Source of the DNA: Protoeuglena noctilucae
Taxonomy: Eukaryota
Direction of reading: 5' to 3'
Length of the DNA stretch: 64,000 nucleotides
NCBI GenBank assembly: GCA_958009085.1
Contig: OY253685.1
Span: 744,001 to 808,000 of the forward strand
This document shows, in pieces, positions 46,013 to 54,373 of the stretch. The notes below the pieces were generated by a model, which was not told the origin of the DNA, made no database searches, and saw only the letters and a program-made list of their open reading frames with translations. Made by a program: the position numbers and the translations under genes. Numbering within the stretch: the stretch's first letter is position 1; every line of letters begins with the position of its first letter.

Positions 46013-48875
46013 ATGATATCGTTTGCCACGCGGAGGGGCTGTTTGCAGCCCGACACCCAGCGATCGAACGGGCCGCGGGTCTCGGAAGTCACAGAAACAT
46101 GGCCGCAGCTCGCCGGGGCGGACCGCTTCTCGGAGTGGCTGACAATAACATTGCAATTTACCTATGAGATCTGTCCATCAAGAGGGAAGCCGGAACCGTT
46201 GACCGCTCTGCTTCTATATCTGCAGCAATCCCTGCCCTGGACGCCATCCCAGGCACTACGTCCTGCCCGATGGCATGCCACGGCATCCTCGAGATATCGA
46301 GCGCGTTTGGCCGTGGCGCGGGCCGTGTCCTTCCCCTCTCGGCGCGCCGAACCCCTCGCCCCTGCGGACGCGGTGTCCCACCCTCTGCGCGACACGGAGG
46401 GCGCCTTCCCCGTCGCCAAGCATCCAGCCAAGCGCGTCTCTTCCCTGGCTTTCACGCGCGGGCTCCGGATCCTCTTCTTCGTCGAAGCACATAACGGGAT
46501 GTCCCAGGCAAGGCGCGCACATTTGCCCTCGCGGCCAGTGTCTTTCAATCACCCTTCTTGATTTGACTCTTCTGCTTCTCCCTCCCGCAGCGCCTGAAGC
46601 TCGAGGCCGAGCGCATGGGCCACCGCGTGCACGTGGAGCTGGCCCTGTCCGCCGATTCGATGCTGCACGCCTACGACGTCTACGCACCGGACCTGGTCGT
46701 GTGTCCCATCCTCAAGCGCCCGGTCCCCGAGGCCATCTGGGAGGCCACGGCCACGCCCGTGTGGATCGTGCACCCTGGGGTGGCGGGCGACCGTGGGCCC
46801 CACAGCATCGACTGGTGCGTGACGCGCAAGGACGCACGGTGGGGCGTCACGGTCCTCGAGGCCAGCGCAGAGATGGACGCGGGGCACGTCTGGGCCACCG
46901 AGGACTTTGACGTGCCCCCCGATGCGACCAAGTCGTACATCTACCGGTGCCTCGCCGTCCCGGCCGCCGCCCGGTGCCTCGCGAGGGCACTGCGGGCGCT
47001 CGAGTCCGGCGCAAGACCCACCCCGCAGCACCCCGGCATGCCCGGCACCCTCCGCCCTTCGATGGACTCACGCCGCGACCGCTCCGTCGATTGGGCCGCG
47101 CCCGCCATCGACGTCTGCCGGGTGGTGCGCGCCTCGGACAGCGCTCCGGGGGCCCGGTGCGTCCTCGGCGCCCCCCACGCACCCGACGCAGAGTACTTCG
47201 CCTACGGGGCCATCGTGGAGTCGGCGCCTCCCGCCGGCCTCTTGGCAGCCGTGCGCCCCGGGGACCTCCTGGCCCAGCGTGACGGCGCCGTGCTGGTGGC
47301 GGCGGGGGACGGCACGGCTTTGTGGCTCTCGCATTTGCGGCGGCCCAAGGCCCCCGGGGACACCGCGCGCCACATCAAGCTCAAGGCGACGGCTGTGCTG
47401 CCGCCCGCGGTCGCTGCTTCGCTGCCCACCCTCCCGGCACCCCCCCTGCGCGTGGAGCCGTTCGGGGCCCGCCCCGCGACGTGGCAGGAGGCGTGGTACG
47501 GCGTCAGCCCGGGCGGCGCGGCGGTGGTGCGGTGGGAGGTGCAGGGCGGGGCGTTCGGCCCCTCGCAGTGCGCCGGCATCCGCGAGGCCATCACCGCGGC
47601 GGTGGCGGACCCGGACACCCAGGTGCTGGTGCTGGCGGGGTCCCCGCAGGCCTTCAGCAACGGCATCGACCTGAACGGCGTGATGGCGAGCGCAGACCCC
47701 CCCTCGGCGGCGTGGGATGCCATCACGTCCATCAACGACCTCGTACGCGACATCTTCTCGGTCTCGCGCGTGCCGGTCGTGTCGGCCCTGGCGGGCGGCG
47801 CGGGGGCGGGCGGGGTCATGACGGCGCTCGCGGCCGACGCCGTGTGGGCGCATGGCGACGTGGTGCTGAATCCCCACTACCGCACCATGGGGCTGACGGG
47901 GTCCGAGTACTGGACCTACTTCCTGCCCCGCAAGTGCGGCGTGGCCATGGCCAGCGCCCTCACAGACGCGGCGCAGGTGAGGGGTAGTTGCAGGGGCTGG
48001 TTGGAGCTGGATGGCGTGGGCATGAGAGGGAGCGCAGCGGGGCTCGCTGGGTCCCTGATGCGTGCCGTCGCGTCTCTCAGACTTTGAGCGTCTGCATGGG
48101 CGGCGTGATGCGCTGGAAACCCTTACCCTTTGCGTCGTCCTCGCAGCCGATTCTGGCACCTGATGCGGCTGCCGTCCGTTTGGTGGACGCCGTGCTGACG
48201 CCGTCCCTGCCGGGCTTCATGGAAGAGGTCGTGCGGCGGGCCGAGGCGATGGCCGCGGGGCCCGAGGGCGCAGTTGTGGTTGCCAACAAGCGCGCGGTCC
48301 GCACCCCCGCATGGCACGCGAGCGTGGAGGAGCTGCGGGAGCAGGAGCTGGTGGCCATGCGGAGGTGAGAGTGGATGGGTGCTGATATGACTCCTGGTGC
48401 GACCGTCTTGGTGTGGCCTGGCGACGGCCTGGGTCGTCTCTTGCTTCTCTGACAGCCGTCGCTCGTGCTGACTGCTGCTGTTGGGAGCATGTCACAGCTG
48501 CATGCCTACCAATCCTGTCGCGTACCGTCACCCATCATGGTTACCCTCTCTGGTGCCGTCCTTCTCAGGTGCTTCTCTTCTGCTGTGTTCCTGGAGGCCG
48601 CCGACCGCTTCGTCCACAAGCACGCCGCCGACGCCACGCCCGACCACATCAACAGCGACCTGGCTGCGAGGCTGAGGGACCTCATCGCAAGGGCCAAGGA
48701 GCGCGCATCTGTCGCAGCGTCGCACGTGCGGCCCGTGTCCGTGACCCTGTCCTCTTCGGTTGAGTCTGACTGGGAGACGGTGCCAGAGTCCGACGCCATC
48801 GCCGGGGCCTTCGCGGCCGGGGCGGCGGTGCCGGGGGCCATGGCGGGGCCCTTCGAGGCGCCGCAGGACGCCTGA
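46013..48875 (+). CDS. hypX: HypX/HoxX-family protein (formyltransferase-like N-domain plus enoyl-CoA hydratase-like C-domain)
   Basis: LRILFFVEAHNGMSQ|RLKLEAERMGHRVHVE...PDLVVCPILKRPVPEAIW...IVHPGVAGDRGPHSIDW...WGVTVLEASAEMDAGHVWA...KSYIYR...RASDSAPGA...FSNGIDLN...INDLVRDI...AGAGGVMTALAAD...VLNPHYRTMGLTGSEYWTYFLPRKCG. Introns at 46508-46590 (GC-AG), ~47977-48146 and ~48365-48569. The start codon is uncertain (46013 or later). Confidence 0.9.
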
Positions 48876-49718: not shown

Positions 49719-51485
49719 TCACGCCAGCTCCTCGGGAGGCGGCACCTCGGCGTCTTCCAGTTCCGGCAGCGGGAACCGCAGCACGGCCGCCAGCCCTGTA
49801 ATCCTTCCCAGCTGCTCACCCGACGGGTGGGCGGCCGACAACACGTGCACCTCGCCCCCCGACCCCTGCACTTCATCCAAGAGCGCAAGGTACCTCCGCC
49901 GCGCCGGCACCGTCCGCGCGCGCAGCACTGCGTCGGATATCAGCAGCGTCTGCACGGCGCCCATCTCCGCCGCCGCAAACACATGACCGGGGCCGTAGAA
50001 GGCCCGGGACGGGTCGCGGGACATCATGTCGAAGAATCCCTGCAAGGCGCGTGCCTCCCGGGCCGCCTTGGTGTCCGCGATGCGCTGCTGCACGGTCGGG
50101 TCCCCCATCACCTCCTTCAGCGCCGGCTTGTAGCTACTGGACGCGTGCACTGCGAGGGCCGGGTCGCGGCAGGCGCTGTCCTTTCCGAAGCAACAAGACA
50201 TGGAAGCAAAGTAAAAGCAACCAAGCAAGCGTAACTCCCGGGCCCGGAGAGGCCTACCACTGGGGCCAATGCCAGCCACCGACAGCCACCGCCACCGTGC
50301 CTTACCAGCCACGATGCGCGATCGGTTGTCCATGAGAGCGCGCTGGTTCGACCGCACGCTCTCCTCGTCGATGTACTTGCGGAGCTGGTCCTTGGTGAAC
50401 CCCGGACCCGCCAGGACCAGGCACTTGACTGCAAGCGCAGGTCACGAGGTGCGGCAGCTCAGTACAAAGCACATTGCAGTGAAGAGTCACGCAGCAAGTC
50501 TCATCTGCTCACTCTCCATGCCCTGCACCGTGTACATTTTCACCGACTGGCTTTCGTTGCTTTGCCCTCCACACCGCCAGCAACCGGCACCCGCCACCCG
50601 CACGCATGCCTCACCGACCTCCCAGTTGACGTTACGCACGATCGCCTGGTAGCACGACTCCAGGAACTTGGTGAAGGCTTTCTCGAATCCCGCCGACGCC
50701 GCGCCCGTCTTGCGCGGCAGGTTGGCCTCGATCCTCGCTTTTTGCACCGTCACGCTGCCCCCGATGAGCTGCAGCACAGCGCGCCCCTCCTCGACCATCA
50801 TGACGGCCAAGTCGGCTGAGAGCTCCGGCGACGACGCGGCCTCGAGTCGCTTGCGGTCCAGAGCGTCCCACTGGTCCTGCATTTTAGCACCAGACGTGCG
50901 AGGTCGGCTGGGCGTCGCAAGCGCCTAAGCAGAGACCGGCGCTGGGTGCAAAGCAAGAGTCTGGGTCGAGCGGGGCGGGCGTCGGGACATCAGACGTCAT
51001 CCATCTCACACCTTGTGGATGCCCAGCGTCTTGAGCATGTCGACCGTCAGCGTGTGGTGGGCGCCCAGCTTGACGGCCTCGCACTCTGTGAGGTTGGCTC
51101 CGCCGAATCGAATCTCCTCCGCCTCCATGTCGTAGTCCACCGTGTCCACTCGAATCTGAAGCCGCACCTTGACCTTCTCAGATGCCCTGGAAGCCAGCGA
51201 GAGTCACGCCATCTTACAATAACTATGTTTGTAGCCAACGCCGCGGTGGCATTCGCACGACATCGTTATCGTCGCGACGGAAAGCGCCCCAGAACGCCGC
51301 AGCACGCACCGCCCGCTCCGAATCATGCCCTCGCGGTCGTCGTGCACTTTGCGGAACGTGGTGCCCTCGACGACGTCCCCTGGTCGCACGACATTGTAAA
51401 TCTCCCAAAGATCCTCAGCCGCGTTGATGAAGACGACCACCAGGCCGGAGCCATCGGCCTCGAAGTGGCGCTTCCTGATCTGCAT
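49719..51485 (-). CDS. PELO: Pelota/Dom34 ribosome-rescue factor (eRF1-like)
   Basis: MQIRKRHFEADGSGLV...EDLWEIYNVVRPGDVVEGTTFRKV, KLGAHHTL, WDALDRKRL...SADLAVMMVEEG, IEANLPRK, LAGPGFTKDQL, HASSSYKPALKEV, RAFYGPGHV, LLISDAVLR, SGEQLGRITGLAAVLRFP. Confidence 0.93.
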
Positions 51486-51497
51486 GGCACCCGCAGC

Positions 51498-51878
51498 TCA
51501 CAGCTCGTCGCGCCCCGCGTGGTGTATGCCGTGGCCGAGGGCGTCTGGGCCCGGGAACGTGCCGTCCGCGTCCTCGTCCTCGAATATCACCACGCAGACG
51601 AGGAGCGTGAAGGCGACGAGGACGAAGAAGATGAGGGCGAAATTAAACGCCGCCCACGACTCTATCACCGACGACGGCCCCTTCTGTGATGCAGCGGCTC
51701 TCTCGTAACCGGCAGCGACCTCCTCTGTCACTCCTGCGGGCGCTCCCGGGTGCCATCGGCGTGCCACGCTGCGGAACGAGGTGCGGGGTCGCAGGGAGCG
51801 TCCCGAGCCCCCCACCTTGGCTGGACACCTCGTGCGCAAACCGTCCACTTTCTCCGTCTTCTCTGCCGCGCTGGGCAT
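51498..51878 (-). CDS. Small single-pass membrane protein ending in RDEL (ER-retrieval-like), immediately upstream of Pelota
   Basis: 126-aa ORF with a hydrophobic helix (AAFNFALIFFVLVAFTLLVCVVIF), an acidic tail and terminal RDEL-TGA. It may contain a short intron ending at ttccgcag near 51769. Confidence 0.55.
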   Translation of the reverse strand: MPSAAEKTEKVDGLRTRCPAKVGGSGRSLRPRTSFRSVARRWHPGAPAGVTEEVAAGYERAAASQKGPSSVIESWAAFNFALIFFVLVAFTLLVCVVIFEDEDADGTFPGPDALGHGIHHAGRDEL

Positions 51879-52208
51879 CCTGGTCCATGGGTTTCAGCCT
51901 CGCAAACGCAAAGACTGAAGCAACGACCGCGCAGATCACGCGAAAACATAGCGAATGTGGACCCGCAGACGCGTGGAACGGCGAAATCGGTGAAGCCAGC
52001 GGAAGCCAGAACTCGGTGCCCGTCCACTGGCGCCGACTGGTCGGGTGCGCAGCTGCTGACGACGTCAATTCGTCGCCTGTCGTTCGCTGCCGGTGGCCGC
52101 TTGACTCCCCAGCGAGGCCAGTGGTCTGGATCGCGTGCCAAGCAGGGTCCAGAGCTCGCCGTCAGTGGGCTCCGCCGCCGCGCGGTCCCTTGGGAGGAGA
52201 GGTGGAGG

Positions 52209-52797
52209 ATGGCGGGGCGGCAGATCATCGCGGAGCACCCGGTGTTCAAGCCCATCAACTCGGACCCGGAGTGGCGCGACGTCGGTGAGGGGCGCGCCCG
52301 GACGCGACTCTCGCGCGCTGCGCGCGTTGCCCTTGCAGCTGTCCCCGTCCAGCGCGTCCCGGCAGCCGGCGCGGGGCAACGCACCGCCGCTGCGCAAGCG
52401 ATGCGTGCACGCAAACCGCGCCGCGCTCAAAGCGGCGCGATGGCTGCGCTTTGCAGTGCGCGCCTTCCGGTTCGGGGACTGGATGTTGCTCCCGACGCTG
52501 GGAGCGGGGGGATGGCTGTACGGGTTCCTCCAGTCCGGCAGCTCCATGGCGTGGGGGCAGAAGTACACCTGGAGCAGCCACCCGCGCTTCATCTCCGGCA
52601 CCCGCGTCGGCGTCTTCTCGGTATTTGGAGCCTACCTCATCTCCTTTCACACGAGGTGAGATGAGCTGCCGCCCCGCGGCTGCCCAGGCCTAGGCCCGCT
52701 GTCGCGACCCTCGCCCGCACGTCCCTCGGCTTCCCCCGCCCGCAGCAAGCTCCGGCTCCAGGGGTGGCTCGATAACGGCAACGGCAAAGCCGAGTGA
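52209..52797 (+). CDS. Mitochondrial complex I 20.9-kDa subunit (NUXM/NUO21-like)
   Basis: Three exons: HPVFKPINSDPEWRDV|VRAFRFGDW...GWLYGF...GAYLISFHTS|KLRLQGWLDN, which fits the NUXM pattern P.I..DP....VV..FR..D ... S..RL.G...N. Confidence 0.7.
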
Positions 52798-52834: not shown

Positions 52835-54373
52835 TCAATCGCTGTCTGAGCCGTAAACCCCCGCCAGCCCCGCCAGCCCCGCACCCTCGGCAGGCCCGTC
52901 CCGCTTCGGCTCGCCAAGCCCCTGCCCCGAGTTTGTCGCGCCGGCTTTGGGCGCAGCGGCGACGTGCGACGCCCCCGGCTGCGCCCCTCCGGCAGGTGCC
53001 CGGACACGAGCCTTCACACGCACCCGTGCCTTGGCCCCTGCCTGAGACGCCTCTCCCGCGAACGCCACCGCCGCTGCCGACGCACCCGCGACTCGCCGGT
53101 CGTCCGCCCCGTCGCCGTCTCCGCTGGGCCCCGCAACCGCACCCGCACCCTCGGCATCGCCGTAAGCCCCGCCCCCTTCGTCCCCCTCGCCCCCGTCATC
53201 CAGCCGCCGCACGAACGCCCTCTGCTTGTGCGCCAGCTCTTGCACCATCCTGTCCTCTTCCTCCATCTCCGTCCGCGCCCTGCGAGTGCGGGAAATTCCG
53301 ACCCGATCGGTTGGGTCTCGTAGCATGTGGGCGGCCTTGCAGGTGGCTCAGGCGCAAAGCACGTGTCACCTCTCGTCCTCCTCCGTCTTGGCGGCCTCCG
53401 TCGCGCGCGCGATGACGTCGTTGATGTCGACCTTCTGCTTCTGTGCGTTGAGCGCCCGCGCCTCGTCCAACGCCGCCAGCACGTCCATCTCGCGCTTGCT
53501 GTCCAGCGTGCGGTTCTCCAAGGCCTGCGAAAAAGCAACAGCGCTTCTTCTCTTGGCAACGCTCGTCTGCCGAAGGCGCTGTCATGGCGTGCGCAGAGGC
53601 GCATGCATCGACATCGCAGCCCAGGTGCTCACCTTCATGGCGTTCCCCTCCTCCTCCTCCTTCCTGGCGGCCTCCATGGCCGCGGCCTCCTCCTCCCGCG
53701 CTTTCCACGGCTCGTAGTGCCTCCGCATGCCCTTGTCCATGTCGTAATCGTGGTTCTGCGGGTCTGTCTTGAAGGATAGCTCCGACTTGCAGTTGGGGCA
53801 CCGGAACGAGAAGCGGAAGATCTGGATGCCCAGGTAGTTTTGCCCGATGATGTCTTCCTTCCTGCAAGCAGCACATCGCAGGGCCAGGGTTGAGAAGAGG
53901 GAAGCAAACGCGGGCGGAGCACGGGGGAGAGGTTGGGCCCGACCGTGCGCCTCACCGCATGACGAACTTGGTGCCCCGGTAGATGAAGTTCCCGCACGTG
54001 AGACAGGTGACGGACATGGGCATCATCATCGTCACCGACATGCGGTTCGTCGGGTCACGTTTGGGCTTCTGCGAGAGGGGGGGTCGCAGTCGCAGATGGG
54101 AGTCGTGCTCCGACATCACTGCCGCGCCGAAAGACGCAGGTCCAGATAACATGCTTTGCGAAGGACAAAGGCGCGGATGGAGCCCCCGCTTGGCGCTGAA
54201 AGACCAGGCAATACTTTCCGTCCTCACAGCCGGTCTAAAAGAGGGCCCCTGGCCGACTGCCCACGCAGGTGACGTCGTGCCATACACAAGCAGCTCCTCA
54301 CCTTCACGCGGGGCATGTTGTAAGGGTCGAAGTCGGGCGCGAAGTACTTGTTCAAGACCTTGCGCTCTCCCAT
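52835..54373 (-). CDS. YJU2: Splicing factor YJU2/CCDC94 (Cwc16)
   Basis: MGERKVLNKYFAPDFDP, MMMPMSVTCLTCGNFIYRGTKF, YLGIQIFRFSFRCPNCKSELSFKTDPQNHDY, AMK|ALENRTLDSKREMDVLAALDE. Confidence 0.92.

Follow-up and report, generated by a model that had tools for sequence, protein, structure and literature searches.

A 64,000-nucleotide (nt) stretch of Protoeuglena noctilucae DNA (assembly GCA_958009085.1, contig OY253685.1, positions 744,001 to 808,000; hereafter the window) carries on its minus strand a small open reading frame (ORF1) that ends directly upstream of a gene for Pelota (ORF2). We consider it probable that both belong to one bicistronic nuclear gene, whose single spliced mRNA contains first the small ORF, encoding a protein with a transmembrane (TM) segment and a C-terminal RDEL sequence, and then Pelota. 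In sense direction, the junction reads CGC GAC GAG CTG TGA, followed by a spacer of 12 nt (GCTGCGGGTGCC; 51486-51497, minus strand) and ATG CAG ATC. The TGA at 51500-51498 terminates ORF1 and the ATG at 51485-51483 opens Pelota in the same frame. Re-reading of the sequence confirmed these positions and the in-frame gap, which had been reported in a preliminary description of the locus. With one ORF running from 51888 to 51498, a second from 51485 to 49719 and 12 nt between them, the locus has the two-ORF arrangement of a green-algal bicistron. ORF1 measures 309 nt and ORF2 1167 nt; with the spacer, they add up to 1488 nt in the spliced form. Two features of the locus were discounted as evidence. 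The shared frame is expected by chance in 1/3 of cases, and the length of the upstream ORF is unremarkable in a window of 67.1% guanine plus cytosine (GC) without ambiguous bases (N), in which 148 ORFs from ATG to stop reach 126 amino acids (aa) or more.

The structure of ORF1 follows from a public protein of 102 aa, P0001, which maps exactly to 51888-51816 and 51733-51501 on the minus strand, with the stop codon TGA at 51500-51498. Exon 1 (51816-51888, 73 nt) starts with the ATG at 51888 in the context AAACCC-ATG-G, with C at position -3. It is followed by an intron of 82 nt (51734-51815) with GT-AG borders (AAG/GTGGGG...CCGCAG/G), which contains the ATG at 51756 and is missing from P0001. 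Exon 2 (51498-51733) begins with VTEEV, continues through the TM helix and an EDEDAD-containing tail to RDEL and includes the stop codon. Between 52208 and 51486, the minus strand contains ATGs at 51949, 51888, 51878 and 51756, and the list of the last three given previously was right for the stretch it named. The ATG at 51878 (AUG2, 51876-51878; ACCAGG-ATG-C) has A at -3. In unspliced RNA it opens an ORF of 126 aa (51878-51498), which ends in RDEL and had been taken as the ORF1 product. The intron shifts the frame: splicing puts the TM/RDEL part in frame with ATG 51888 instead of ATG 51878 and removes ATG 51756. In spliced RNA, ATG 51878 opens an ORF of 22 codons with its stop at 51730-51728, and the next ATG is that of Pelota, leaving no ATG between 51878 and 51485. 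The 126-aa model was replaced accordingly by the 102-aa protein starting at ATG 51888, and gene calls on genomic contigs that give the 126-aa ORF are probably wrong. As a side aspect, the same C-terminal 77 residues with TM segment and RDEL are read by spliced RNA from ATG 51888 and by intron-retaining RNA from ATG 51878. Intron length (82 nt) and ATG spacing (10 nt) compensate each other exactly (82 + 10 = 92, remainder 2 on division by 3), a match that may be a coincidence or a safeguard.

Exon 2 displays a clear coding signature. Codon log-odds scores were calculated with a table trained on 956 codons of the window with Pfam support (Pelota, the ORF at 46615-48084 and one Yju2 exon). The last 77 codons of ORF1 scored 0.694 bits per codon in frame, and the two alternative frames gave -0.72 and -1.00. 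This value lies in the top 0.4% of the 940 stop-free 77-codon stretches of the window, a set that includes real exons. The ORF1 intron showed no preferred frame, with scores of -0.26, -0.24 and -0.32. In the last third of ORF1, the GC fractions at the first, second and third codon positions were 0.79, 0.36 and 0.93, resembling those of the Pelota exons.

ORF1 is predicted from its sequence to be a single-pass membrane protein. Residues 51-75 form the only hydrophobic stretch, with a Kyte-Doolittle value of 3.25 over 19 residues. A single-sequence AlphaFold2 model placed a helix at residues 45-80, with a predicted local distance difference test score (pLDDT) of 89-93 over residues 51-70 and a mean pLDDT of 65.8. 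The flanks of the TM segment differ in charge, +1 on the N-terminal and -6 on the C-terminal side, and the acidic tail of 27 aa ends with RDEL. By the charge rule, the N-terminus would probably be cytosolic and the C-terminal tail located in the lumen of the endoplasmic reticulum (ER). RDEL is accepted by KDEL receptors, and a KDEL-class signal could act here because the predicted position of the tail is lumenal.

The downstream gene was defined by a public protein of 388 aa, P0106, which maps exactly to five exons separated by four GT-AG introns of 123-186 nt. All exons are located on the minus strand: exon 1 at 51310-51485 with the ATG at 51485, exon 2 at 51012-51186, exon 3 at 50615-50876, exon 4 at 50306-50428 and exon 5 at 49719-50149 with the stop TGA at 49721-49719. 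The protein contains in order the Pfam domains PF03463 (eRF1_1, residues 1-131, E 2.1e-31), PF03464 (residues 140-270, E 4.4e-17) and PF03465 (eRF1_3, residues 275-373, E 8.1e-24, matched in exon 5). All three matches exceed the curated cut-offs, which places the protein in the Pelota/Dom34 family, and comparison with P0047 and P0005 revealed the usual N-terminus of the family. Judged by its domains, ORF2 is a canonical, eRF1-like Pelota/Dom34 ribosome-rescue factor.

When the last Pelota exon (142 aa) was used as query, 103 proteins with E <= 1e-10 were obtained among 2766 candidates. One cluster was identical to the query, P0004/P0107 shared 75% identity over this exon, and named green algae shared about 56-61%, among them Chromochloris zofingiensis with about 59%. 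A tree was calculated from 28 rows chosen from 107 proteins, namely the window's Pelota, P0107, 21 source-named proteins and five further ones including MMETSP entries; Mamiellophyceae were not represented. The window's Pelota and P0107 nested inside the chlorophyte clade (Shimodaira-Hasegawa-like approximate likelihood ratio test 98, 21 rows) and outside the group of sampled Trebouxiophyceae plus Chlorophyceae (support 90). Because of this placement, the host is taken as a chlorophyte. The stem under the two proteins is long (0.99 substitutions per site), which suggests either accelerated evolution or a deeply separate lineage.

Public sequence collections point to a common transcript of both ORFs. 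P0001 derives from JGI/IMG and Logan and is found on one contig of 2862 nt. P0106 has the same sources and occurs on two contigs, the longest again 2862 nt. Genomic contigs in the same collections, the longest of 544,778 nt, carry intron-naive ORFs only (P0002, P0113, P0108, P0109, P0114 and P0115). P0002 represents the 126-aa reading of ORF1 on 17 genomic contigs, P0113 is Pelota exon 1 running into intron 1 on 15 genomic contigs, and P0108 and P0109 correspond to the last-exon ORF of Pelota; two of six ORFs looked up were absent from the collection. Since the genomic contigs yield only unspliced ORFs, the spliced proteins P0001 and P0106 must originate from RNA-derived contigs. The simplest reading of equal size and equal sources is that a single contig carries both spliced ORFs. 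Such a contig would be compatible with additional monocistronic forms and does not prove exclusive bicistrony. The earlier proposal of one mRNA for both proteins is thus backed by the coding signature of exon 2, by spliced proteins that trace to a 2862-nt contig and by a precedent in C. zofingiensis described below, while the single transcript itself is what we infer from them.

Polycistronic nuclear mRNAs of green algae are well documented. According to Gallaher et al. (2021, PMC7896298) and Duenas et al. (2025, PMC11892635), such loci can be exclusively polycistronic, and translation of ORF 2 depends mainly on leaky scanning past the weak start codon of a short ORF 1, with AUGs depleted ahead of ORF 2. 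The mention of leaky scanning in chlorophytes in the preliminary description is consistent with this literature. A Pelota pair is listed in the supplement of the former study. Dataset S1 of PMC7896298 contains a C. zofingiensis locus in which Cz04g12085 (279 nt) precedes Cz04g12080 (1146 nt); the locus is classified as fully polycistronic, lies on the minus strand and has a 107-nt spacer, ORFs out of frame and the stop codons TGA and TAG. In Dataset S5 of that study, Cz04g12080 is annotated as Pelota and the entry for Cz04g12085 is blank. Dataset S4 lists the colinear pairs Cre09.g388578/Cre09.g388615 (evidence 'IsoSeq', ORF 1 with 42.7 bits) and Vocar.0033s0102/0101 (evidence 'EST', ORF 1 with 43.1 bits). 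The Chlamydomonas pair is absent from the master table of Chlamydomonas polycistrons in PMC7896298, and g388615 appears there only in supplementary files 4 and 6. No text linking Pelota to algal bicistrony was found in the papers searched, the pairing appearing only in the supplementary tables of PMC7896298. In size, the present locus fits the published ranges, as its 309, 12 and 1167 nt for ORF1, spacer and ORF2 compare with medians of 291, 40 and 1185 nt given for Auxenochlorella protothecoides bicistrons in PMC11892635.

We envisage the following course of expression. One promoter, common to the divergent neighbour, would drive a single mRNA, and transcription should start within the leader/promoter region 51889-52208, a position deduced from its location between the ORF1 ATG and the ATG at 52209 of the divergent plus-strand gene. 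This region contains one ATG (51949). After removal of five introns, the mRNA would carry ORF1 (102 aa, ATG 51888) and, 12 nt further on, the 388-aa Pelota ORF. Some scanning 40S subunits would initiate at the first AUG (AUG1, with C at -3), and the remaining subunits would pass on to the Pelota AUG by leaky scanning as at other green-algal bicistrons. As a speculative minor route, subunits might initiate at AUG2 with A at -3, translate its 22-codon ORF and reinitiate at the Pelota AUG. Reinitiation after the full 102-codon ORF1 across the 12-nt spacer is less likely, because reinitiation efficiency drops with increasing length of the upstream ORF (uORF), as discussed in published work.

The start codon contexts are compatible with leaky scanning. 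G occupies +4 at the starts of ORF1 and of the two neighbouring genes, but ORF1 differs in having C instead of A at -3, a local comparison confined to these genes. Weak ORF 1 start contexts are the published rule at algal bicistrons. The Pelota start (GGTGCC-ATG-C), with G at -3 and C at +4, is adequate only, not strong as initially described. The spliced leader contains one ATG in 318 nt, corresponding to a density of 0.31 per 100 nt compared with 1.30 in the window.

Several observations weigh against a bicistronic gene. The low number of ATGs is in the expected direction, as the term 'ATG-poor' had implied, but is not significant at a single locus. With 3.5 ATGs expected from mononucleotide composition, 2.35 from a first-order Markov model, 1.47 under a fourth shuffle and 1.0 under a synonymous-codon shuffle, the probabilities of equal or fewer ATGs were 0.12, 0.31, 0.53 and 0.88, respectively. 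AUG2, 10 nt after AUG1 and with A at -3, should catch many of the leaky scanners. Exon 1 lacks a clear coding signature, scoring -0.13 bits per codon compared with +0.19 in the frame of ATG 51878. Co-location of P0001 and P0106 is deduced solely from their equal 2862-nt contig size and equal sources, and this contig is longer than expected. P0003, an incomplete Pelota of 314 aa found on a contig of 1241 nt, limits the 3' untranslated region (UTR) to at most about 296 nt. Together with a leader of up to 320 nt and the 1488 nt from ORF1 start to Pelota stop, the expected mRNA comprises at most about 2100 nt, which is exceeded by at least about 750 nt. The excess suggests that the assembly merged neighbouring or overlapping transcripts. 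In a table of PMC11892635, the Chlamydomonas v6 Pelota gene Cre09.g388615_4532.1 is monocistronic with a 5' UTR of 129 nt and 0 AUG. Furthermore, the bicistronic sets in seven supplementary files of that study contain no Pelota locus, the names Pelota, Dom34 and eRF1 being absent from them.

To these points adds the isolated position of ORF1 in homology searches. A full HMMER search of 1,835,955,588 representatives retrieved only its own record at E <= 0.001, and word-indexed searches with 9 and 31 candidates retrieved only ORF1 itself at E <= 10. The ESM Atlas gave no usable match, and searches of Pfam (best E 0.37) and of PDB (best E 0.31) gave nothing significant. The best Pfam match, which resembles SPT_ssu, was below the cut-off and was taken as noise from the TM helix. 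The protein searches yielded no relative of ORF1 from the organism encoding P0004/P0107, whose Pelota is 68-75% identical. Apart from this, prokaryotic genome scans with P0001 and with the Pelota alignment produced 555 and 139 pattern matches, respectively, none of which was confirmed. The protein searches thus found ORF1 in its own records only, besides identical copies on 17 genomic contigs, and none of the ORF1 searches retrieved the Chlorophyceae ORF 1 proteins Cz04g12085, Cre09.g388578 and Vocar.0033s0102. Divergence past detection from these proteins is plausible, because they share only about 43 bits with each other according to the tables of Gallaher et al. (2021, PMC7896298).

The lack of homologues and of a coding signature in exon 1 would also be expected if ORF1 were a long regulatory uORF in the Pelota leader, perhaps translated to throttle Pelota, with a functionless, lineage-specific peptide. 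ORFs of this length are common in the window, as stated above, and Duenas et al. (2025, PMC11892635) describe the published inter-ORF spacing as not distinguishable statistically from uORF-to-ORF spacing. Against a mere uORF stand the codon score of exon 2, which is specific for one frame, its third-position GC fraction of 0.93 and the coherent design of the predicted protein with TM helix, charge asymmetry and C-terminal RDEL. Moreover, absence of orthologues is frequent even among validated algal ORF 1 proteins, as published for 29 ORFs of A. protothecoides and 16 of C. reinhardtii. On balance, we regard a purely regulatory uORF as unlikely. The excess length of the 2862-nt contig could alternatively reflect two separate but overlapping transcripts that were merged during assembly, with a Pelota start site inside ORF1 and an ORF1 mRNA polyadenylated within the Pelota gene. 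TGTAA is the green-algal poly(A) signal. A possible alternative signal of this type occurs in sense orientation within the first Pelota intron (51218-51214), and TGTAA is enriched in the window, with 26 occurrences compared with 15.4 expected and none of 100 shuffles reaching 26. Such an arrangement would also agree with the monocistronic entry for Chlamydomonas Pelota in v6. Yet at the density found in the window, the chance of a TGTAA in 682 nt of introns is about 0.14, the 12-nt spacer would push the Pelota promoter into coding sequence, and the C. zofingiensis locus was classed as fully polycistronic from Iso-Seq. Separate transcripts are therefore a clearly improbable explanation. Downstream of the Pelota stop, no sense-strand TGTAA occurs until 40413, so that the poly(A) signal of Pelota itself is not TGTAA.

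The common frame and the short distance of 12 nt had also led to the suggestion of readthrough at TGA 51500-51498, which would generate a functional membrane-anchored ORF1-Pelota fusion with the junction RDEL-x-AAGA-MQIRK. We consider such a fusion extremely improbable. Frame sharing is expected in one of three cases, the C. zofingiensis pair is out of frame, and about 1/3 of the loci tabulated by Gallaher et al. (2021, PMC7896298) are in frame, from which these authors argue against readthrough. In the cluster that matches the last Pelota exon identically, all members are 314 or 388 aa long and none is a fused form, a result obtained from the Pelota side, as forms longer than ORF1 were not searched from ORF1. 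RDEL needs a free C-terminus and would be buried in a fusion, and with the predicted topology Pelota would end up in the lumen, out of reach of the ribosomes. To our knowledge, no readthrough motif matches TGA-GCT-GCG. None of the data presented here bear on a regulation of its own mRNA by Pelota, which had been raised along with readthrough.

A bicistronic gene as favoured here could have a deeper history. In an extended version of this reading, which we regard as very doubtful, the pairing of a small ORF with Pelota would be ancestral to chlorophytes, ORF1 would be a diverged orthologue of Cz04g12085 and Cre09.g388578, and both genes would have been kept together by functional coupling over hundreds of millions of years. 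Coupling might take two forms. Co-translational targeting of an ER-membrane ORF1 protein, retrieved through RDEL, would bring the shared mRNA and thereby Pelota synthesis to the ER, or initiation at ORF1, with its two close AUGs and the intron that decides on the frame, would set the dose of Pelota.

The locus is surrounded by other genes. A Saf4/Yju2-type splicing-factor gene with several exons is located on the minus strand at 52835-54373 (ATG at 54373, stop near 52835; Pfam PF04502 with E 3.6e-28 on 53582-54022) and its end precedes the ORF1 ATG by about 950 nt. Between both lies a small divergent gene on the plus strand (52209-52662), whose ATG at 52209 is 320 nt away from the ORF1 ATG and has the strong context GAGG-ATG-G. 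Its first exon is rich in GC at third codon positions (MAGRQIIAEHPVFKPINSDPEWRD...), and another frame, which ends at about 52659, resembles a membrane protein (...GDWMLLPTLGAGGWLYGFLQSG...). The gene had no Pfam match; its unspliced 151-aa ORF, P0114, is present on 10 genomic contigs. Downstream of Pelota and convergent with it, the plus strand contains an uninterrupted ORF of 490 aa (46615-48084) with N- and C-terminal formyltransferase and enoyl-CoA hydratase domains (E 5e-07, 7e-08 and 6e-13), a combination unusual for an alga. Rfam at gathering thresholds yielded 0 matches in the window and hence no known structured RNA at the locus. A scan for bacterial promoters and terminators was disregarded as irrelevant to a eukaryote.

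If confirmed, the locus would extend bicistrons that have Pelota as ORF 2 beyond the Chlorophyceae, in which the pairing was catalogued, to a lineage of chlorophytes well outside that class. This would suggest that the association of a small ORF with Pelota is old or has arisen repeatedly. The case is unusually tight, since the spacer is in frame and only 12 nt long, two AUGs compete at a distance of 10 nt and ORF 1 contains an intron, and it would be useful for testing how far leaky scanning alone explains ORF 2 translation. For genome annotation, it illustrates a small gene that would be missed or merged by standard pipelines assuming one gene per mRNA.

Comparison with known systems places the locus among the algal bicistrons. 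Like a classical uORF, the present upstream ORF must either be skipped or be translated to its stop with subsequent reinitiation, but it differs from the typical uORF, which is much shorter and unlike a protein, by its 102 codons, coding-type codon signature, TM helix and sorting signal. The downstream protein resembles other members of the Pelota/Dom34 family in having all three eRF1-like domains over its full length and the usual N-terminus, and stands apart by the long branch shared with P0107. Closer parallels are found in the A. protothecoides TOM22 and OST4 loci, which, as described in PMC11892635, also have a short ORF 1 (often for a membrane or 'pioneer' protein), a short spacer, a sub-optimal ORF 1 start and few AUGs before ORF 2. 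In contrast to the A. protothecoides bicistrons, an internal AUG with A at -3 follows 10 nt past the ORF 1 start, and an ORF 1 intron decides which AUG reads the conserved-looking part. The A. protothecoides bicistrons have been tested for leaky scanning, whereas the P. noctilucae locus is known from sequence and public protein records. The closest counterpart is the C. zofingiensis pair Cz04g12085 and Cz04g12080. In both species, a small, unannotated ORF 1 (279 nt in C. zofingiensis, 309 nt here) with the stop codon TGA lies directly 5' of a full-length Pelota (1146 and 1167 nt) on the same strand, while the spacers differ, with 107 nt out of frame in C. zofingiensis and 12 nt in frame here. 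A small ORF ahead of Pelota is thus already on record, in supplementary tables only, and the locus described here is a new example of this arrangement rather than of a new mechanism.

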